A DNA stretch of 64,000 bases. It comes from an uncultured Candidatus Saccharibacteria bacterium (GTDB taxonomy: Bacteria > Patescibacteriota > Kazan-3B-28). This document shows positions 8,563 through 60,265 of the stretch, piece after piece. The notes below the pieces were generated by a model. That model did not search any database, was not told where the DNA came from, and was given only the letters and a program-made list of their open reading frames with translations. Position numbers and translations under genes: made by a program. Each line of letters starts with the position of its first letter. The first letter of the stretch is position 1. Where the stretch lies: assembly GCA_964434605.1 (NCBI GenBank), contig CAYSVM010000002.1, forward strand, positions 47 through 64,046, read 5' to 3'.

Positions 8563-9903
8563 ATGGAACACCATTTTCTCGTTGCTATCATCGGCCGTCC
8601 CAATGTCGGCAAATCCACCCTATTCAACCGCCTTATTGGCGAGAAAAAGGCTATTTTAGCCGAAGAACCCGGTACTACCAGAGATGTTCTTTTTGGAGAA
8701 GTAACTTGGAACAAGATTAGCTTTACTGTCGCAGATACTGCCGGTATTGAGCCAGACAACAAATCTGAACTCACTAAAAATGTTTTAGCTCAAACCAAAG
8801 TTGCCCTTGAATCTGCTGATCTCCTTTTATTCCTAGTAAATGCCAAAGAAGGAATTCACCCAGACGACCAAGAAGTTGCCCGTATGGCTCGTAAGCAAAA
8901 CAAGCCCATATTGCTACTAATAAACAAGACAGACAAAAAGGTAGATCCCGAAACACTAGCCGAATTCTATCGTCTTGGATTCAAACAAACATTTGAAACA
9001 GCTGGCACTACCGGCAAGGGAATTGGTGAAGTCCTAGATGAAACTGTATACCAGTTAAATAAGATCAAGAAGTCGAAAGCTAAAACAAAGTCTAGCCATC
9101 CAGTTGTTAAGGTAGCAATCCTTGGCCGCCCCAATGTCGGCAAATCTACCTTATTCAATAAACTAATTGGGAAAAATCGCAGTATTGTAAGCAAAGAAGC
9201 GGGAACTACCCGAGACACCATAGATGAGCAAATACTTTTCGAAAATCACATCCTAGAGTTCACAGATACTGCTGGTCTCCGTCGTCGTGGAAAGGTTGAG
9301 GTAGGAATAGAGAAATTTTCTGCCCTCAGAATGCTACGCGCTGCCCAATCCGCAGACATCTGTCTTCTTTTAATGGAAGCAGACGAAGGAGTTATTGCCC
9401 AAGACCAACATATTTTGGAAATTGTTTTGGAATTGGGTAAAAGTCCAATCCTCGTTATCAACAAATGGGATCTTGTTGAAAAAACACAGAAAATTACTGC
9501 CGAATACGACAAATACCTAGAACAAAAATACCGCTTTGCATCTTGGATACCAAAAATTTACATCTCCGCCCTTACTGGCCAGAGAGTAGATCGACTTAAG
9601 ACCCTGATTCTCTCCACCATGGAACTACGCCACACTCGAATTGCCGATGAAAAAATAAATTCTCTTATTCTCCAAGCGGCAACCGAACGTAGACCATTTG
9701 GGAAATACGCTATTCCCGTTATCCACTCTGCCCGTCAGACATCCACCAATCCACCAGTAATTGAAATGGTGGCAGATCGTCCTGAAGCACTCCACCACAC
9801 CTACCTGCGTTATTTAGAAAATAAGATTCGTGAAGTCTGGCCCCTTACAGGTGTTCCCATCCGATTCGCCCCTAGGGCAAAAGCTCGGCGAGTTAGGAAA
9901 TAA
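8563..9903 (+). CDS. der: ribosome-associated GTPase Der (EngA), tandem GTP-binding domains
   Basis: 446 aa; two G domains each with GRPNVGKSTLFN P-loop and DTAG motifs; KH-like C-terminus. Confidence 0.9.
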   Translation: MEHHFLVAIIGRPNVGKSTLFNRLIGEKKAILAEEPGTTRDVLFGEVTWNKISFTVADTAGIEPDNKSELTKNVLAQTKVALESADLLLFLVNAKEGIHPDDQEVARMARKQNKPILLLINKTDKKVDPETLAEFYRLGFKQTFETAGTTGKGIGEVLDETVYQLNKIKKSKAKTKSSHPVVKVAILGRPNVGKSTLFNKLIGKNRSIVSKEAGTTRDTIDEQILFENHILEFTDTAGLRRRGKVEVGIEKFSALRMLRAAQSADICLLLMEADEGVIAQDQHILEIVLELGKSPILVINKWDLVEKTQKITAEYDKYLEQKYRFASWIPKIYISALTGQRVDRLKTLILSTMELRHTRIADEKINSLILQAATERRPFGKYAIPVIHSARQTSTNPPVIEMVADRPEALHHTYLRYLENKIREVWPLTGVPIRFAPRAKARRVRK

Positions 9904-9982
9904 TAATATCGTCAGTCATTCCTAATCCTATCTTAGTGGTATAATACCCTTGTCATATCCTTTACCATCAAAGGAGGGCAAG

Positions 9983-10228
9983 ATGGCAGGTAAAAAAATC
10001 GGTAAAGTCGTACATTACTACGACAAGATTGGCGTCGCTATTATCGACTTAGCAGGCGACTTAAAATTAGGGGATACCGTCACTTTCAAAAAAGGTGAGG
10101 AAGAAAAGACCGAAACCATCGAGTCGATCCAAATTGAGCGGTCTGCTGTAGATTCCGCCAAAAAGGGAGATGTCGTTGGAATCAGGGTCAACGAACCGCT
10201 TAAAGAAGGTACTGAAGTCTACGCATAG
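9983..10228 (+). CDS. hypothetical small protein (beta-barrel-like, ~81 aa)
   Basis: AAGGAGG RBS directly upstream of ATG at 9983 (the ORF-track start at 9950 is upstream of the RBS); no confident family. Confidence 0.4.
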   Translation: MAGKKIGKVVHYYDKIGVAIIDLAGDLKLGDTVTFKKGEEEKTETIESIQIERSAVDSAKKGDVVGIRVNEPLKEGTEVYA

Positions 10229-10237
10229 AAAATCGGA

Positions 10238-10744
10238 ATGAGACTGATCATCGGACTCGGTAATCCAGGAAAGAAATACGAATCAACTCGCCATAACGCG
10301 GGCAGAATGGCAGTAGATTTGCTTGCCAAGAAACTAAACCTAAAATTCAAGAAACACACTCGTACTGAAACAGAGATAGCTTCCGGAAAAGAAATTATTG
10401 TTGCCAAACCTCTGACTTTCATGAATAATTCAGGTAGAGCCGTGGCGAAGGTGGCCAGATATTTCGGTATTCCTACCGAAGCGATTATTGTGATTTACGA
10501 CGATATCGATCTACCATTTGGAACCATTCGTTCTCGTACTACTGGTAGTAGTGGGGGACACAACGGCATGCAATCTGTTCTTGATAACCTAAAAACCAAT
10601 TCCATTGCTCGTATTCGAATCGGGGTCGGAAGACCCCCTTCAGATGCAAGTAACTACGTCCTAGAACCATTGAATAAAAAACAACTGGCCGAAATATCCA
10701 AGGTAATAGAAGAAGTAGTTGATTTGTTCCTGAAAGCAATGTAG
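10238..10744 (+). CDS. pth: peptidyl-tRNA hydrolase
   Basis: 168 aa; N-terminal LIIGLGNPGKKYESTRHNAG signature. Confidence 0.9.
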   Translation: MRLIIGLGNPGKKYESTRHNAGRMAVDLLAKKLNLKFKKHTRTETEIASGKEIIVAKPLTFMNNSGRAVAKVARYFGIPTEAIIVIYDDIDLPFGTIRSRTTGSSGGHNGMQSVLDNLKTNSIARIRIGVGRPPSDASNYVLEPLNKKQLAEISKVIEEVVDLFLKAM

Positions 10745-10989
10745 CTTGAATGAGCAAAAAGAAGGAGTGACCCTTCCTTTTGCCGTAACTCCCCAGACCT
10801 TTTTCGGTATCAGCCGTGAGGCATTTTACCAAGACCCTTATGTGAAATTTAATTTCGAAGGGTGGGATACCGATTGGAATAAGCAGGGAGAGCCTTATCT
10901 GCAAGCATCAGATTACAGATAAAGCCCTACTGCCTATTTCTCAATTTTCATTTCATTATACCAGAATAATTCATTTTCGTCAATAGATA

Positions 10990-13900
10990 GTGGACGAAGC
11001 ATTTTACCGGCTGCTGCTAGATAAATTTGCTCACACAGAGCATTTTCAAGAATTTCTTGCTACCGCCGGCACAAAATCTATCACTCTCACCGGGCTCAAC
11101 CAGTTTGGGCGAGTTTTAATGTTATCCGCTCTCCAAAAAGAACAACCAAAACCAATTGTTTTCATCACCAAAAACGAGCAAGAAGAGTTCAAAACCCAAA
11201 AGCTCCTGCAAGACCTCTTTGGAATAAAAGCAGAGGTATATCCTCCTCTTCGTTCAGACTCACTCAATCGCCAGGAATTCATCGCCAACTTCCAACAAAG
11301 AATGAGAGTGGGAAAAACCATGACTCATTCCAAAGCAATTACTATCTTCTCTAGCCGAAACTTAATTGAGCCATTAAGCATGCCCGCGACCAGCCTAAAG
11401 ATCTCGGTTGGTGAAGAATTGTCCCCAAACCAGCTTATAACCAACATTGTGGGACTAGGATTTGAACGCCAAACAAAAGTTTTTCAAGCTGGAGAAACTG
11501 CGAATAGGGGAGAGGTAGTGGATGTTTTCGCTCTGGGACAAGAAAATCCTTGGAGGATTACTTTTAGTGGGAATAAAATCGAACAAATCTATTCATTCGA
11601 TTCCATTGACGGAAAAAAAATAAGACAAGAACAGGAGATTGAGATTGGTGCTTTGAAAATAAAGAACTTTGCACCTACTTTTGTTGAATTCCTAGATGAC
11701 CACAAGCAAGACTATATCGTCATCATGGATCACACCGAAGACATTCTCCAGTCCCTCTATGAGATCTTTATGGCTAGTGAAAACGTAGGACTTGTAAGTT
11801 TGAACCAATCGCTAGATCGTCTTCCTCTGGTAAAAATAGAGACGATTGCTTCTGATGAAATCAAACAACTGAACTTCGAATTCATGACCCCACCCATCTA
11901 CGCTTCTCAGATAGATCGACTCACTAGAGACATTACCAAATATCTAAAAGAAGGTTGGCAGATCGGTATATCTACCGACAAAACTAAGTCCATAGAACAA
12001 ATCCTGAAAGAAGCAGATACTACTCCAGACAGCAATCCGGCAATACTCTCGTCTTCTTGTGGAATCGGAACTGTAAGCCCGAGCCTCAAACTTTTCCTTC
12101 TAACCGATGAAGAGATATTCTCCATTGTTACCCAAGTAAATACCAAAACTACCCAGAAACAGCAAAGAATGTTCATGGCAGAAATTCAGCGCGGAGATTA
12201 CATCGTCCACAACGACCACGGCATTGGCCGTCTACTAGACATTCAACGCATCGAACTAAATGGCATCGAAAGAGAATACCTGATTCTCGAATATGCCAAA
12301 GGTGATAAGCTATACGTTCCTATCGACCAGATAGACAAAATTAGCAAATATGTCTCGGTAGATGGACACGAACCCCAACTTACCCGCTTATCTAGTCAAT
12401 CTTGGAAACGAGTAATTAGTAAGATCCGTAAAGAATCTCACAAGTTTGCCAAAGAACTACTCGATCTCTATGCAAAACGGCAACTAAATAGTGGTATTAG
12501 TTTCGACTCCGATGAAATGTGGGAAAAAGCACTTGCTGATTCATTCGGATACCAAGAAACTCCCGACCAAGAAACTGTTATCAACGAAATCTTGGCAGAC
12601 ATGGAACAAGACAGACCCATGGATCGTCTGTTAGTTGCAGATGTGGGTTTTGGCAAAACAGAAGTTGCTATCCGAGCTGCCTTTAAAGCCGTTACCTCGG
12701 GATACCAAGTGGCCGTTCTTGCTCCCACTACCATTCTAGTAGAACAGCACTACAAAACTTTTATCGAACGACTCCAATCTTTTGATGTAAAAATCGCTGC
12801 CTTAAGTCGCTTTAAATCCAAAGCTGAACAAGACAAAATAGTTGCTCAAGTACGGTTAGGTGAGATAAATATTGTTATTGGCACCCACCGCCTTCTCTCT
12901 AAAGATATTCGTTTCAAGAACCTTGGCCTTATTATCATCGACGAAGAACAGCGCTTTGGTGTAGCCCACAAAGAAAAGCTCAAAATGCTCCGTAGCGAAG
13001 TAGATGTACTTTCTCTTACTGCCACCCCCATCCCACGTACTCTCAACCTAGCCCTCTCGGGCATTAGAGACATTAGCGTAATCGAAACTCCACCCACCAA
13101 CCGTCTTCCCATTATTACCACCGTTGTTCCATATGGGAGTAACACAATAAAAGAAGTAATAGAAAGGGAAGTAAGACGCAGCGGACAAGTATATTTCGTC
13201 CATAATCGTGTCCAAACAATAGATACTGTTCAGCACCGTCTAGAACAACTCATGCCCGAAGTAAAATTTGTTCATGCTCACGGGCAAATGGGAGAAAGAA
13301 TGCTAGCAAAAATAATGCAGGACTTTGATGCACACAAGTACGATGTACTAATTGCTTCCACGATTATTGAAAATGGTATTGATAACCCAAACGTAAACAC
13401 TCTAATTGTAGACGATGCCGGCAGATTCGGCCTATCCCAGCTTCACCAGCTCAGAGGCCGTATTGGACGTGGAAAGATCCAAGCCTACTCTGTATTCATG
13501 TATAACAAAGGCAAGATGTCAGAACGCGCTCTAGAACGACTCAAAACTATCCAGGAAAACACCGAACTAGGAAGCGGGTACAACATTGCCATGCGAGATA
13601 TGCAAATTCGTGGTGCTGGTGGAGTTCTGTCCAAACAACAACACGGACACATTACCGCTATTGGCTTGAGTCTCTATACCAAACTCATCAACAAAGCCGT
13701 AGATGAGCTTAGAAGTGGTCGTAAAATAGATGTTTCAGATGTTACCATCGACCTTCCTGTCAGCGCCTTCCTTCCAGTAAAATATGTAGATGCAGAAAGC
13801 CAACGCCTGAAGATCTACCAAACCCTAGGCATCATTGAAAACGAATCTTCTCTTACCGAAGAATTCAAACGAATAGAAGAAAACTACGGCAAGATGCCAG

Positions 13901-16526: not shown

Positions 16527-18950
16527 TTATATCTCATTATCTGGTTCCTGTAAACCCCGACCAGGTAAACCAGTATTTTTCGCATACTTAATTCGCTCAC
16601 CTACTTGCATCTCCACAATTCTCTTATCTTTTCCAAATTTTAGGCGTGATAACTGCTTAATTGCCTCTCCAATCTTTATATTCGACTGTCCCATGGGAGC
16701 AGGTGCTTGAAGTGTAAATGGACGACTAGCCATACCGTCGATCATAAGTTTTACGTATGCATTCCTATTCTCTATGTTTATCAGATCATTCTGGCTTACA
16801 TCTGGTTCAAATTGTTTCCCAATCGTCTCTGCATCTGGTGCACCAATTGTGAAAGCAATTAGCGAACCAACGTTGCCAAATACAGCATCGCGAATCTTTT
16901 CTTCCAGCTGTGCTACAAACTGATGAGCAATAATAAGATTCAATCTGTATTTACGAGCTTCGGAGAGAATCGTTGCAATAGATTCAGTTGTAACATTCTG
17001 GAACTCATCGATATATAAATAGAAATCATTACGAGAATTCTCTGCCATATCTGCCCTAGAAAGTGCTGCCATCTGCATTTTGGATACGAGAATAAAACCA
17101 AGCAAGTTGCTATTTATTTCTCCAGTCAAACCTTTAGCTAGATTTACCAACAGAATTTTTTTGTTGTCCATCACCTCACGGATGTCGAAAGAACTCTTTG
17201 CTTGTCCGACAATATTCCGCATCATTTCGTTGCTGATAAATCGCCCAATTTTACTAATAATGTATGAGAACAACTCCCCTACCTGATTACTTTTTTCCGC
17301 TTGGGCAAACTCTTCTTTCCAAAAACGCAAAACTGTTGGATCTGTAACATTCACCAACTTTGCTTCCCTAAATGCCTTATCTGTGAAAACTCTTGGAATA
17401 TCTATCAACGTAGCACCTGTTTCATCTGCCAAAAGCAGTAACATTGCGTTACGCATATAGTGTTCAAAAATTGGTCCCACAATCCCAGAACTATTCGGAT
17501 CGAACAACTTATAAAATATGGCTATCATTTCAGACACCACTATATCCTTTTCTGCAGGTGTAGTTGCTTCCAGCAGGTTCAATCCCAATGGCCTACTAAT
17601 ATCTGGCGGATAGAAATGAATTACATCATCCACTCGTTCTTTTGGAATCCTTTGCAAGAGCCACTCAATCATATCTCCATGAGGGTCAATCACACACACT
17701 CCTTGGCCATCGATAATATCCTGGAATGCCATGTTCTGCATCCAAGTAGTTTTACCTGTACCAGTTTTACCAATTACATAGATATGTCTACGCCGATCAT
17801 CTGTTTCCATCCGAACCAGTTTTTCCATACCCCGGTAAACATTCTTACCGAGTAAAATCCCCTGTTTTGGTAAATTCTCTGGTGCAGGAAGCCTCTTTGC
17901 TTTCAACCAACGAATATTTGGAGTCTCTGTCTTTACTCCAGGCAAATGAAAAACTGTAGCCAACTCTTCTGTATTAAAAATAAATGAATTTCTAGGATCA
18001 CCAAACTGACGCAAGATATAGTCTTTCAAGACTTCCATCTCTGGATATTTCGCTACTGTCAAACCATTTAATTCGGGCGCATTGAACTGTAAAAAGCTGT
18101 CTATCAATGTTTTCAGATGACCCTTTGCTTGATTTTCATCCGGTGCAGTTGCAACCAACCGGATAACTGTTTCAAAACCAGATTTTGTTGCTTTAGTTTC
18201 AATTGCCCGGACAACATCTTCCTGTCCTGCAGTAATTTGCTTCTGTTCTGGTTGTTTTCCATCTTTACTGGTAGGTGTCACCAGCTCACCTAGCCCTTTC
18301 AAAACGCCTTCGCTAATAGATGAATTGGATTTTCCTTGCTGCAGGGTTTTTGCGACTGCATGCGCTTGTTTCGTCCATTTCTTGCCATCAATCGGTCTAA
18401 ACATTATCTGAATCCCCGCTCCTGCCCCCTGATCCGCCAGTTTACTCATTGCATTAGTAAGTGCCGAAAGTCCATCTATTTGCAAATTCGCATAAGTACG
18501 AATTGGGAAATAGTTTGGCTTCTTCAGCGTCAACTGGACGCTGGCAATCTTTGCATCTGACGGGAAAAAGTTCGGATATGGTGCCCTCTCAACGACCGCA
18601 TCTGGGTATTGGGAAGTAATTTGTTTTTCCAAAAAGTCTATCAAACTTACAGGTACAGTAGCATAAAAAGTAATCAATTCCTGTTCGGTAGCAATTTCAA
18701 AAGTCAGATGCCGATTCCCCACCGCATCTGCAATACCCGCCAGATTACTGAAAATAGTTTCCATTGGCGCAATAATCGCCTTAATATCCGGTGTCTGTCC
18801 TTCCTCTTTTGGCCGTGGGACTGCAATCATCAAATTCACCCGACTCCGTACGTCATCAGGTCCCCTCTTAGACTTCCTTTGTGATAACCAAAACCAACCG
18901 ATACCGGCCAAAACAATAACCACCCCCAATCCTAAATAAAAACCTGCCAT
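16527..18950 (-). CDS. type IV coupling protein-like ATPase (TrwB/TraD/VirD4 family), paralog 1
   Basis: 807 aa; one N-terminal TM helix and a ~390-aa N-domain. Walker A VIGKTGTGKTT is followed by VIDPHGDM (compare TrwB GTGKS...IVDPNGDM). Walker B YLYIDEFQN and a post-Walker-B HQFVAQL...GNVGSLIAF..DAET block match the TraG-D_C/T4CP pattern. ATG overlaps the stop of the upstream 126-aa gene (ATGA). Confidence 0.7.
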   Translation of the reverse strand: MAGFYLGLGVVIVLAGIGWFWLSQRKSKRGPDDVRSRVNLMIAVPRPKEEGQTPDIKAIIAPMETIFSNLAGIADAVGNRHLTFEIATEQELITFYATVPVSLIDFLEKQITSQYPDAVVERAPYPNFFPSDAKIASVQLTLKKPNYFPIRTYANLQIDGLSALTNAMSKLADQGAGAGIQIMFRPIDGKKWTKQAHAVAKTLQQGKSNSSISEGVLKGLGELVTPTSKDGKQPEQKQITAGQEDVVRAIETKATKSGFETVIRLVATAPDENQAKGHLKTLIDSFLQFNAPELNGLTVAKYPEMEVLKDYILRQFGDPRNSFIFNTEELATVFHLPGVKTETPNIRWLKAKRLPAPENLPKQGILLGKNVYRGMEKLVRMETDDRRRHIYVIGKTGTGKTTWMQNMAFQDIIDGQGVCVIDPHGDMIEWLLQRIPKERVDDVIHFYPPDISRPLGLNLLEATTPAEKDIVVSEMIAIFYKLFDPNSSGIVGPIFEHYMRNAMLLLLADETGATLIDIPRVFTDKAFREAKLVNVTDPTVLRFWKEEFAQAEKSNQVGELFSYIISKIGRFISNEMMRNIVGQAKSSFDIREVMDNKKILLVNLAKGLTGEINSNLLGFILVSKMQMAALSRADMAENSRNDFYLYIDEFQNVTTESIATILSEARKYRLNLIIAHQFVAQLEEKIRDAVFGNVGSLIAFTIGAPDAETIGKQFEPDVSQNDLINIENRNAYVKLMIDGMASRPFTLQAPAPMGQSNIKIGEAIKQLSRLKFGKDKRIVEMQVGERIKYAKNTGLPGRGLQEPDNEI

Positions 18951-25015: not shown

Positions 25016-29748
<4,733 letters not shown>

Positions 29749-57024: not shown

Positions 57025-57546
57025 CTATTTATCCAACCTGCGTAGTCTAACCGCTGTTACCAACGCTGATGTAAAAATAACTGCCCCAACTACACAGCTA
57101 GTAAACTGCGGAATTCCAAAATATCCCGGTACACATCCAAGATTACAAACTTGGTCTCTATACAATCTCCCTAATTCATAACCATAATTGCCCCAGGCAA
57201 ATATTGCACCAAGACCAAGAAGCCAAATCAACCTATATTGACTCGCTTTACTGTAATCTATTCGCAAAGTAATTGACCACACCAAACCAACCAAGAAGAA
57301 TACAAAACCCCAGAAACATGGAGTAAGCAATGGATTCCACAAACTATCTGGAATCCGTACCACCATCCACGAACCGCCTACTGCAAAATACCGTATAACC
57401 TCATTTACCAAATTATACCCAGCAAAAATGACACCAACCAGCAAGAAGAAATTTTGCAAAACTAATAATTCTCTTTTCATAAACCGATTATACCAAACAT
57501 ACAAAACGGCCCGATAACTCGAGCCGTTTTGAATATATAAGTTCAC
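57025..57546 (-). CDS. hypothetical polytopic membrane protein (173 aa)
   Basis: Four to five TM helices, paired Cys residues. Confidence 0.4.
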   Translation of the reverse strand: MNLYIQNGSSYRAVLYVWYNRFMKRELLVLQNFFLLVGVIFAGYNLVNEVIRYFAVGGSWMVVRIPDSLWNPLLTPCFWGFVFFLVGLVWSITLRIDYSKASQYRLIWLLGLGAIFAWGNYGYELGRLYRDQVCNLGCVPGYFGIPQFTSCVVGAVIFTSALVTAVRLRRLDK

Positions 57547-57807
57547 TGAAGAAATAAAACTATTTCTTCTTAGCTTTCTTCTTGGCTTTCTTCTTTCCTG
57601 CCATGTTTTGGGTCCCCATGAACTTAATTGTTATAACATCTCTAATTATTAGCTCTCTATTCCATAAGTCAATAACCCTGAATGGGGATAAATCAAAAAC
57701 TATTATTCCCAAATTTTATCCCCCGTTTTCCACTTCCAAAAAGGAAAATATCCAGATTTCCCACCTCTCAAAAAACATTGACTGGAAAAAGATTTTTGCC
57801 TACCTAA

Positions 57808-57993
57808 CTAATATGAAGTTTCTACCAAACAAAACTCTCCCAAAGTAGGGAGAGAAAGAAGATAGTAGCGACGACCAGCAAACCACCAGTTGTCATTCCA
57901 CCTGTCATCGTTGCGGTTCACGTTCACGTTCCGCTCGTCGTTCCAGCGGTTGAAGGCAAACTTATCATGCAACATACCATCCATTGTCACCAC
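57808..57993 (-). pseudogene. diverged partial copy of the C-terminus of the 58296-58913 gene
   Basis: 61-aa ORF NRWNDERNVNVNRNDDRWNDNWWFAGRR aligns at ~70% identity with the last 30 aa of the 58296-58913 product (HRWLGERDVNVNRNDDKWDYSWWFAGRRQ). ~100 nt of DNA similarity; reading frame not terminated at the same place. Confidence 0.5.
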
Positions 57994-58295
57994 CCCTTGA
58001 ATAAGCTCTTAGGGTTGAATTTTATTTGACATCTATAATGCCTTGATATCTTGCACCAAGTATCTTCTATTTTTTAAGCTTCATACCTCACACTGCTTGC
58101 AACCTTGATCACAAGCACTCTGGAGAATTATGAATACTGGGTTCGGCAGTCAGGAACCGTAATCCCTGTCATATTCGCCTAGTTCCAGATACATCTTACC
58201 AAATTCAGATATATTAAAAGCCCCCGCATTTCTGCGGAGGCAGGACCAAGGACAAAGGATCCAAAAGACCCAAGTGTCCAAGGTCCAAAGGTGAT

Positions 58296-58913
58296 TTACT
58301 GGCGACGGCCAGCAAACCACCAGCTGTAATCCCACTTGTCATCGTTGCGGTTCACGTTCACGTCCCGCTCGCCGAGCCAGCGGTGGAAGGCAATGTAGAG
58401 ACAGTTACCGTTGGCGTCCTTCCAGTAGGTGGCGTTAGGGTGGTCATCAGCGAAACCCGGGTTAGCGGCGTTGAAAGCCGCCAAATCATCCGGATAGGCT
58501 AGGACCAAACCGTGTTTGGCCAACAGGTCGTTCACTTCGGAGCTGGTCCGAATGCGGTCGCTCTTCACAAAGAAGAGCTCAACCTCATCACCCTTGCCAC
58601 GTGGCATGGTGGCAAGTACATCTCGGTTGATGTACTGTTTACAACCAGTAGCCGCAATGACCTGCTGGGGAGTCAGGGAACAATCAACCTTGACCACATA
58701 AGAAACAAGGTCAACTACTGCCTTAACTGCACCCACAACCTTAGGACAGCCCGCCTTAAGGTAATCCACAAGGTTGGTGCGCTTCTCACGACTACCGATG
58801 AGCATTTTGACATGCTCTAGCGTAGCTCCCGCCTTAAACATAAGACGGAAAAATTTACCGATCGTGCCCATCATTTTACTGATGTCTTCGAGGGTTGCGA
58901 TGGTTTTATCCAT
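58296..58913 (-). CDS. hypothetical protein (205 aa), GC-rich, adjacent to tRNA-Gln
   Basis: AAGGAGG RBS before ATG at 58913; GC clearly above local average; conserved C-terminal motif NVNVNRNDDKW..WWFAGRR shared with the upstream fragment; terminator-like hairpin ccgcagaaatgcgg + U tract downstream. Confidence 0.55.
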   Translation of the reverse strand: MDKTIATLEDISKMMGTIGKFFRLMFKAGATLEHVKMLIGSREKRTNLVDYLKAGCPKVVGAVKAVVDLVSYVVKVDCSLTPQQVIAATGCKQYINRDVLATMPRGKGDEVELFFVKSDRIRTSSEVNDLLAKHGLVLAYPDDLAAFNAANPGFADDHPNATYWKDANGNCLYIAFHRWLGERDVNVNRNDDKWDYSWWFAGRRQ

Positions 58914-59065
58914 CGGATGCCTCCTTTTAAAGATCAAGTGGTTGATATAGGGGTGCTAATAACAGATTACGACCCCTCCACTTACTACCACGAAAGTAGC
59001 ATGAAAAAACACTCTTGTAAAGAGTTTTGTAGCTCTGGAAGCTAATTTTATTCACTGGCTGGGGC

Positions 59066-59140
59066 GGCAGGGATCGGACCTGCGAATCACGGGACCAAAA
59101 CCCGTTGCCTTACCACTTGGCTACGCCCCAATGTTACCCA
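59066..59140 (-). tRNA. tRNA-Gln (anticodon UUG), CCA encoded
   Basis: Reverse complement TGGGGCG-TA-GCCAAGTGGTAAGGC-AACGGGTT[TTG]GTCCCGT-GATTC-GCAGGTCCGATCCCTGC-CGCCCCA-G-CCA; 75 nt cloverleaf. Confidence 0.9.
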
Positions 59141-59663: not shown

Positions 59664-59949
59664 TTGACTAAATATCTAACTATGGCTATCAAGGAAGTAT
59701 CCCTAGCGTTCAAAGCTCTCTCTGATCCCACTCGACGAGAAATCATTAAGAAACTAAAGTCTCGCAATCTAACCCCTAGTGAGTTGGGTCTCCACTTCCC
59801 TATCTCCCCCCTCCCTATCTCACCACTTAGGCATCTTGAAATCTGCCAACCTCATCACTTCCGAAAAACAAGGACAAAATATTATTTATTCACCAAACAC
59901 TACTGTTTTCTACAAAATATTAAATGACTTTATGGAAGAATTCAAATAA
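59664..59949 (+). pseudogene. ArsR/SmtB-family transcriptional regulator with a +1 frameshift in a C6 homopolymer
   Basis: Frame A gives the ArsR N-terminus (ALSDPTRREIIKKL...LTPSELGLHFPIS). Frame B continues SHHLGILKSANLITSEKQGQNIIYS...MEEFK, the ArsR recognition helix/wing. The frames join if the C run at 59806-59811 is 5 rather than 6 nt. Confidence 0.6.
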
Positions 59950-59998
59950 TATGCGTATAATTCCCTTTAATTTGAGGACTGAATGGTTTTCTTGGCTA

Positions 59999-60265
59999 AT
60001 GATTCTGCCTGTTATTGTCATTGCAATTTACGCTTATCTCCTGCTACCAGACAAAGTTCCTTCACACTGGAATATGTCTGGACAAATTGATTGATGGACT
60101 TCCCGCAATGGACATGCTTTTGGGATCGGTGGATTGCTCTTTATTACTTCTCCCTTCATCCCCACTCCATATAACTTTTACTTACCACTAATTGGAATCT
60201 TACTTGCCGCATTTCTTCTTATCTCGATGTCTTTTATTTGGTTCAAACAAAAGAATAATAAGTAA
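59999..60265 (+). pseudogene. DUF1648/SdpI-like small membrane protein with an in-frame TGA at 60092-60094
   Basis: MILPVIVIAIYAYLLLPDKVPSHWNMSGQID*WTSRNGHAFGIGGLLFITSPF...; family members read D-R-W-G at this point, so CGA to TGA nonsense is the likely change. Confidence 0.55.

Follow-up and report, generated by a model that had tools for sequence, protein, structure and literature searches.

A diversity-generating retroelement (DGR) can be recognized by two copies of one sequence, of which one is rich in AAC and the other, at the 3' end of a gene, has the adenines of the first copy replaced. In this study we analyzed such a pair in a 64,000-nt stretch (hereafter the window) of contig CAYSVM010000002.1 from an uncultured Candidatus Saccharibacteria bacterium. 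The AAC-rich copy is referred to as the template repeat (TR), and the copy in the gene, here the end of a 205-aa coding sequence next to tRNA-Gln, as the variable repeat (VR). The locus belongs to a kind of DGR that earlier catalogues list for CPR (candidate phyla radiation) bacteria, and it represents a new, degenerate instance with neither a reverse transcriptase (RT) gene nor a gene for the accessory protein Avd.

Two surveys describe the closest systems, the DGRs of CPR/Patescibacteria, to whose literature Paul et al. (2017) also belongs. Wu et al. (2018) defined a "CPR set" of DGRs (PMC5758913), and Roux et al. (2021) described a DGR clade 2 that is restricted to Patescibacteria and has targets without recognizable domains (PMC8144416). 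The complete relatives of the window locus, found in Saccharibacteria, Vogelbacteria, Kaiserbacteria, Paceibacterota and Wildermuthbacteria records, resemble these CPR elements in several ways: the hosts are cellular, the small targets have no recognizable domains and carry the VR at their very C-terminal end, the TR is rich in AAC, the mismatches are specific to adenines, and an accessory gene of the Avd type accompanies an RT with DGR motifs. On the grounds of hosts and architecture, the RTs of these relatives may belong to clade 2. Unlike these elements, the window copy has no RT and no Avd, and the share of its mismatches that falls on adenines is lower than in any intact element sampled.

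The element of the Bordetella phage BPP-1 (mtd-avd-TR-brt) resembles the window locus in its invariant TR, in a VR at the 3' end of a gene for a ligand-binding protein, in adenine mutagenesis, in having Avd as a partner, and in the structured RNA that surrounds the TR and includes a stem-loop on its immediate 3' side. In the phage element, the RNA flanking the TR on either side wraps around RT-Avd, and Avd is bound by the stem-loop just 3' of the TR (Handa et al.). However, avd follows the TR on the opposite strand in the clade of the window, whereas the avd coding sequence precedes the TR in BPP-1. The corresponding place is taken here by a non-coding structured domain of 230 nt with a promoter-like box. 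The VR of BPP-1 is followed by a GC-rich initiation of mutagenic homing (IMH) sequence and a hairpin, while an array of YTTRG repeats and a terminator follow it here. Lastly, BPP-1 is a phage and the present host is cellular.

VR/TR pairs or lone VRs without an adjacent RT, as in the window, are also known among incomplete and remote-target DGRs (DGRscan/MyDGR, PMC6602519; PMC5758913; Roux et al.). In the remote-target DGRs described, however, only the VR is distant and the TR stays with the RT, whereas in the window it is the RT that is missing and the TR has remained next to the VR. RT-centered DGR finders would miss the locus, since it lacks an RT and falls short of the usual thresholds for adenine bias.

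Repeat pair at the end of the 205-aa gene

On the minus strand of the window, tRNA-Gln(ttg) is followed after 143 nt by the ATG of the 205-aa open reading frame (ORF), then by about 330 nt without a convincing ORF, and then by a 61-aa ORF (coordinates in Table 1). The 205-aa gene has a GC content of 0.53, as compared with 0.42 for the window, and its product gave no Pfam match. An earlier note on this DNA had therefore rightly described a GC-rich gene of no known family adjoining tRNA-Gln. The end of the gene and the 61-aa ORF share a gap-free direct repeat of 97 nt, in which 85 positions (87.6%) are identical and the start-to-start spacing is 434 nt. The translations of the two copies show 71% identity over 31 aa. 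Both figures bear out what the note had given, namely about 100 nt of DNA similarity and about 70% identity to the last 30 aa of the gene product. The repeat sequence is not low-complexity, so that the similarity is not confined to sequence of that kind. Because the arrangement of gene and repeat recurs in every related locus holding a TR, the repeat is not a chance match. It is also genuine and, as had been argued before, not an assembly artefact.

The geometry of the pair is that of a DGR: one copy ends the gene, and a non-coding copy lies nearby on the same strand. Seven of the 12 mismatches are located at adenines of the downstream copy (p = 0.013), adenines making up 25% of that copy. The pattern is asymmetric, with an adenine on the TR side in seven mismatches and on the VR side in one. 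Between the first and the last adenine mismatch, hereafter the core, the proportion is seven of nine. The in-frame reading of the TR is FNRWNDERNVNVNRNDDRWNDNWWFAGRR, and AAC or AAT accounts for eight of the 32 TR codons aligned to the VR. The overall adenine share of 0.58 is under the 75-80% that is usual practice for DGRs. Judged from the window alone, the assignment of the AAC-rich downstream copy as TR and the gene copy as VR is only suggestive.

The variation within the protein family follows the adenines of the TR as well. An A at codon position 1 or 2 was found in 17 of the 34 tabulated codons (residues 172-205), and these coincide with hypervariable columns of the family. The family-wide column entropy was 2.50 bits where the TR codon has such an A, versus 0.83 bits in the other columns of the C-terminus, which form the frame W, R, V, W, WWFAG. 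Therefore, the C-terminal motif shared by the two copies is the invariant scaffold of a DGR variable region, and the apparent partial paralog is the TR. The earlier proposal that the conserved Trp/Arg-rich C-terminus may be a recombination-prone module holds in this form, as a special site of DNA exchange.

The 61-aa ORF had been taken for a diverged partial paralog left by an old duplication or recombination. A Pfam search with its product gave no match. Upstream of the TR the ORF crosses a structured RNA domain, in which related loci differ by indels as in non-coding sequence. As far as sequence can tell, the ORF is a non-coding DGR template repeat and not a diverged paralog, given its adenine bias, its AAC-rich composition, its place in a conserved unit of promoter, RNA domain, TR and stem-loop, and the presence of Avd and RT in the relatives.

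Complete elements in related loci

Related loci (labeled L001 and onwards) comprised loci encoding homologs of the 205-aa protein, loci from a scan of GTDB species representatives (metagenome-assembled genomes (MAGs) of Saccharibacteria, Vogelbacteria and Kaiserbacteria), and metagenome loci. The mismatches in the homolog loci were located at TR adenines in 12 of 12 cases in L001, 14 of 14 in L005, 9 of 10 in L007 and 12 of 13 in L008, and in 21 of 21 in a further related locus of the same architecture. Behind the TR of L005, L007, L008 and L011 comes first a bAvd gene (PF22296, E 1e-9 to 1e-10), which lies on the opposite strand, and then an RT gene. The RTs of these loci are 325-400 aa long, match RVT_1 and carry the hallmark motifs of DGRs (…GNLTSQLLVN…RYADDF…; NLTSQ...YADD). 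An RT directly after the TR was also found in about 50 metagenome loci.

The sequence between VR and TR links the window to these elements. A 39-nt spacer motif (window 58037-58075) matches one IMG/VR contig and at least 120 metagenome stretches, mostly from groundwater. Whatever the target protein, the VR lies at -400 to -200 from this motif, the TR at +105 to +245, Avd (opposite strand) at +215 to +650 and the RT at +620 to +1650. The window TR falls within the same TR offset as the TRs of about 90 loci, and in about 90 metagenome VR/TR pairs sharing the motif the mismatches are almost exclusively at adenines. The VR-TR spacing is constant at 415-434 nt in the homologous loci, and the arrangement occurs in more than 100 loci with different target proteins. 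Between loci with target proteins of only 40-48% identity, the spacer is still conserved at the DNA level. At the level of sequence, this comparison with the relatives settles the DGR identity of the window VR/TR pair.

Two related loci show further arrangements. L012 (IMGVR_UViG_3300042876_001093, 9680-12249) is a viral-classed contig on which the spacer motif is accompanied by Avd and RT. Two VRs, at -1258 and -344 relative to the motif, correspond there to one TR, and each has 22-24 adenine mismatches to it. L014, an RT-less locus with the spacer motif, has a near-perfect hairpin of about 36 bp (1330-1405) in the expected TR position.

Absence of RT and Avd, and decay in the relatives

The search for RT and Avd covered the window, which is part of a 128-kb contig of an incomplete genome, and 5.6 kb further to the right, taken from a Logan contig 100% identical to the window. 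No RT was found in the 64 kb by a YxDD scan or by tblastn with a 115-aa RT fragment, and tblastn with the full-length RT and Avd of the relatives gave nothing below E = 0.5 there. The additional 5.6 kb contained no RT either, which brings the total to about 70 kb. Compared with a nucleotide profile built from 56 complete elements, the locus shows homology only as far as profile position 89, which falls directly behind the stem-loop and U-run that follow the TR. The next ~290 nt are AT-rich and match nothing. An 88-aa plus-strand ORF in this region (57582-57848) was considered as an Avd remnant and rejected, as it has no similarity to Avd.

Related loci at various stages of decay were observed. 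The RT is frameshifted or truncated in the first cassette of L020 and in L055. Only a C-terminal RT stub is left in L002 (115 aa), L001 (about 50 aa), L069, L078 and L114, and only the tail of Avd in L042 and L072. Nothing of RT or Avd is left in L041/L037, L132 and L026. Read as gene content, this series shows that RT and Avd have apparently been lost repeatedly in the DGR clade of the window, leaving VR/TR cassettes at every stage of decay.

Tandem cassettes were seen in two of these loci. In L020 (3934-8150), the first cassette consists of spacer, TR, Avd and the frameshifted or truncated RT (aa 2-157), and the second is complete. The VR/TR pair of the first cassette still has 84% adenine mismatches; therefore, one RT may serve two TRs. 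In L072 (1-2244), target plus spacer occurs twice in tandem; each copy ends with no more than the final ~30 codons of avd, and the available part contains no RT.

The only other assembly of the organism consists of Logan contigs from SRR11582139, which do not cover the VR. They were reached through the UPF0047 and hydrolase proteins, whereas the exact target protein and the CysRS protein have no entry. Contigs L134 and L133 of this set, 100% identical to the window, end at 57932 (in the TR) and at 59089 (in tRNA-Gln), respectively, so that the cassette falls on other contigs. As the assembly is generally fragmented, these break points are not readable as VR heterogeneity. The best DNA identity of the window cassette to any fetched locus is 69-79%; hence the loss of RT and Avd is not datable and VRs are not comparable within the species.

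Anatomy of the cassette

The features of the locus are listed in Table 1. In the 75 nt after the VR, the window has eight YTTRG matches, and the mean across 94 loci is 4.7. The controls per 75 nt were 0.77 for background, 2.0 after the TR and 0.07 inside genes, which corresponds to a 6-fold enrichment over background after the VR. Arrays of 4-8 such repeats (CTTTGG/CCTTGG/CCTTAG), about 8-9 nt apart, were found in about 90 loci whatever the target protein (e.g. L007 1995-2060, L028, L048). By analogy with the IMH and hairpin of the phage element, the array may mark the target site. The terminator-like hairpin behind it occurs at the same place in related loci.

Next on the minus strand is the promoter-like box. 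Across an alignment of 95 loci its consensus TGnTAnAAT is conserved, the key positions being A (0.85), A (0.78) and T (0.77) and TG lying upstream of them, and we infer that it acts as the promoter of the TR RNA. RNAalifold on 95 loci gave 53 base pairs for the RNA domain that follows, of which 95.6% are canonical versus 39-46% with shifted partners, and 38 show compensatory changes. The window keeps 50 of the 53 pairs. Its nhmmer score is 182 bits over the full length, and the 50 RT-bearing loci range from 151 to 274 bits. The 3' stem-loop has a 7-bp stem and a dG of -13.1 (family median -14.9), and it is conserved with covariation in 96 loci. Predicted RNA structure, including a stem-loop on the 3' side, thus flanks the TR in the window as in DGRs. 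Taken together, these parts point to a separate TR RNA of about 350 nt that the window would encode, with a promoter of its own.

For the structured domain, Rfam 15 has no matching family. A match to RT-16 (RF03019) just 5' of the TR reached 24.5 bits (gathering score 50; E 0.79) and was treated as chance; it was not reproduced in L001-L008, nor in small-database searches of L005, L018 and L014. Matches to SNORA48 and NrrF were likewise set aside as chance.

Table 1. Features of the DGR locus and its neighbors in the window.
Feature	Position	Strand	Remarks
tRNA-Gln(ttg)	59056-59130	-	ARAGORN and Rfam; neighbor, outside the element
DGR target (variable-protein) gene, 205 aa	58296-58913	-	ORF; identical to P0001 of an NCBI record
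Variable repeat (VR)	58297-58393	-	Last 32 codons and stop of the 205-aa gene; 97-nt repeat, 88% identical to TR
Adenine-mismatch core of the VR	58324-58385	-	
YTTRG repeat array (CTTTGG, CCTTGG, ACTTGG ...), candidate target-side DNA element	58244-58294	-	Immediately 3' of VR/stop codon
Intrinsic-terminator-like hairpin, putatively closing the target gene transcript	58220-58241	-	9-bp stem, 7 GC pairs, then TTTT
Extended -10 promoter-like element (TGGTAAGAT), putatively for TR RNA	58193-58201	-	Matches conserved TGnTAnAAT
Structured RNA domain (~230 nt), predicted 5' part of the DGR RNA	57964-58189	-	Precedes TR; RNAalifold, nhmmer
Template repeat (TR)	57863-57959	-	AAC/AAT-rich; adenine-biased mismatches to VR; conserved position relative to spacer motif
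Mechanical 61-aa ORF	57808-57993	-	TR read in the VR frame, not a gene
Stem-loop and U-run, candidate Avd-binding stem-loop and/or TR RNA terminator	57835-57856	-	Directly 3' of TR
AT-rich gap; avd (opposite strand) and RT gene here in complete relatives	57547-57834	-	No detectable remnant
Membrane-protein gene, unrelated to the element	57025-57546		Next after the AT-rich gap

Two other observations were made in the window. The AT-rich gap contains a tiny lysine-rich ORF (MAGKKKAKKKAKKK, 57560-57604, minus strand) close upstream of the membrane-protein gene at 57025-57546. Large ATPases encoded at 16527-18950 and 27007-29748, both on the minus strand, match TrwB_AAD_bind, T4SS-DNA_transf and DUF87, which are type IV secretion coupling-protein or HerA-like domains.

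Target protein and its family

The 205-aa protein consists of a helical N-terminal region (residues 1-67) and a conserved C-terminal domain (residues 68-205) that ends in the VR. A sequence profile search of the PDB found no relative. In an AlphaFold model built on a 51-sequence alignment, residues 71-205 have a pLDDT of 96-98, and the helical N-terminal region is less certain. The highest-probability Foldseek matches of the model are C-type lectin-like domains, with weak E values of 0.06-0.4. The C-terminal domain is thus, by its modeled structure, probably C-type-lectin-like.

The protein has few close relatives, and a profile search at E<=1e-3 returned 1269 clusters (50% identity), while the stricter cutoff of E<=1e-10 gave 945. 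Further members of the family, which the earlier note had proposed to look for, therefore exist, none of them elsewhere within the 64-kb window. All are about 200 aa long and unannotated, and they come from CPR records such as Paceibacterota and Wildermuthbacteria. In 16 of 16 loci, the GC content of the target gene exceeded that of the flanks, with differences from +0.003 to +0.23 and whatever the context.

Two members were observed in other settings. L003 encodes the closest homolog of the window protein (57% identity) and has no TR; an exact 25-nt direct repeat (863-887 and 1464-1488) brackets about 600 nt directly after the homolog, and the downstream genes (HTH_20, DUF1648/SdpI) resemble genes at window 59664-60265. 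In L009, from an archaeal MAG labeled Methanoregula sp., a family member with a GC content of 0.61 (9827-10447) lies between flanks of 0.375, and no TR or RT was found within 10 kb of it. This archaeal occurrence could be due to horizontal transfer or to a binning error.

Present state of the cassette

We consider it likely that the window locus is a recently orphaned and drifting DGR cassette of the CPR/Patescibacteria clade, which has lost its RT and Avd genes. In the complete layout, a target gene with a 3' VR would be followed by a terminator, a promoter, about 230 nt of structured RNA, the TR, a stem-loop, avd on the opposite strand and the RT gene. The TR RNA would be reverse-transcribed by RT-Avd, with random nucleotides inserted opposite the template adenines. 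The cDNA would then replace the VR and re-randomize about 10-15 codons in the C-terminal, probably C-type-lectin-like, domain of the 205-aa protein. In the window, the avd-RT segment would have been deleted with a break just 3' of the stem-loop. The VR would now be frozen, and VR and TR would be drifting apart, which could have given rise to the 4-5 non-adenine mismatches. This loss would be fairly recent, given that RNA domain, TR reading frame and target ORF have all stayed intact.

The mismatches of the window pair were compared with those of other loci. The median adenine share was 0.97 in 42 unique RT-bearing pairs, and none was at or below 0.60. RT-truncated loci are similar to the window in this respect (L055, 0.36; L069, 0.69), with L055 the only lower one among the loci tabulated. 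Two of the non-adenine mismatches lie inside the mutagenized core and 2-3 at the 3' boundary. As homing would overwrite mismatches at these places, they speak for decay. Furthermore, only seven of the 22 core adenines differ in the window, versus a mean of 56%.

Several points weigh against this explanation. The window pair by itself is statistically modest, with 7 of 12 mismatches at adenines and p about 0.01. The RT could be encoded elsewhere in the genome, since 64 kb of a 128-kb contig in an incomplete genome were searched. The 50 of 53 RNA pairs, the promoter-like box, the TR frame and the stem-loop are all intact, which fits use in trans equally well as recent loss. The RT-less loci L001, L042, L078, L132 and L072 still have purely adenine mismatches (92-100%), and five of 50 RT-bearing loci also have at least two internal non-adenine mismatches. 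Lastly, weak Foldseek matches are the sole pointer to a C-type lectin fold of the target.

The cassette might instead be a still active satellite, whose TR RNA is reverse-transcribed by an RT-Avd encoded elsewhere in the genome and whose VR is diversified in trans. This appears rather unlikely to us, but a number of observations agree with it. Besides the full-length, structurally intact RNA domain, the window has kept the promoter-like box and the 3' stem-loop, an open TR frame and an intact target ORF. Homology ends at the same point after the stem-loop and U-run in three independent RT-less loci (the window, L132 and L026), as at the boundary of a module. The adenine mismatches of the RT-less cassettes named above and the two tandem cassettes of L020, of which only the second has an intact RT, point in the same direction, as do the two RT-less tandem copies of target plus spacer in L072. 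The literature accepts that DGRs can act on targets at a distance (PMC8144416). However, the adenine share of the window is below that of all 42 intact pairs, homing would have erased the core and boundary mismatches, and few core adenines differ. In addition, no RT was found within about 70 kb. Priming in the Bordetella phage element cannot do without the RNA downstream of the TR, whereas here everything past the stem-loop is gone. It is more doubtful still that RT-less satellite cassettes are a functional organization and not debris, in which one RT-Avd diversifies several units in trans in a tiny CPR genome. Each unit would be complete in itself, with target gene, VR, YTTRG array, promoter, structured RNA, TR and stem-loop. 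In that case, the 5' structured domain, which is absent from Rfam, and the post-VR array would serve this DGR clade for recognition, on the RNA side and on the DNA side, respectively.

Very little speaks for the interpretation of the earlier note, an ordinary partial gene duplication or recombination between paralogs that left a diverged pseudogene fragment beside the gene. A second, shorter, in-frame copy of the C-terminus does lie 434 nt downstream, and some mismatches are not at adenines. However, the mismatches favor adenines in just one of the copies. The same arrangement, with a spacing of 415-434 nt in the homologous loci, recurs in more than 100 loci with different targets, where it goes along with Avd and RT; what lies between the copies is a conserved structured RNA and not decayed coding sequence; and the window holds no other family member.

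Equally improbable is a remnant genomic islet that entered at the tRNA-Gln 3' end and carries the GC-rich gene as cargo: the gene does begin 143 nt downstream of the tRNA and is GC-richer than the genome, but no integrase-like ORF lies between 57000 and 59600, the 3' 23 nt of tRNA-Gln have no second copy in the window that could mark an island boundary (<=3 mismatches allowed), the flanks are core housekeeping genes (gyrA, rpsA-like S1, infB, uvrA/B, topA, cysS) with a CPR-typical DUF5671 protein nearby, most of 34 related loci have no tRNA in their available flanks, so that tRNA adjacency is the exception, and the GC anomaly is a trait of the whole family and hence no evidence for an islet. 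What stands of the islet proposal is a remnant without its mobilizing enzyme, the missing enzyme being a reverse transcriptase and not an integrase.

Significance

With the locus read as an orphaned DGR cassette, an apparently odd paralog becomes a recognizable system. Possibly new descriptions, which concern the clade rather than the window, are the 5' RNA domain with its covariation, the box of extended -10 type, the YTTRG array behind the VR and the recurrent series of losses. If some of the orphaned cassettes were indeed served in trans, the target repertoires of DGRs in CPR genomes would be underestimated.

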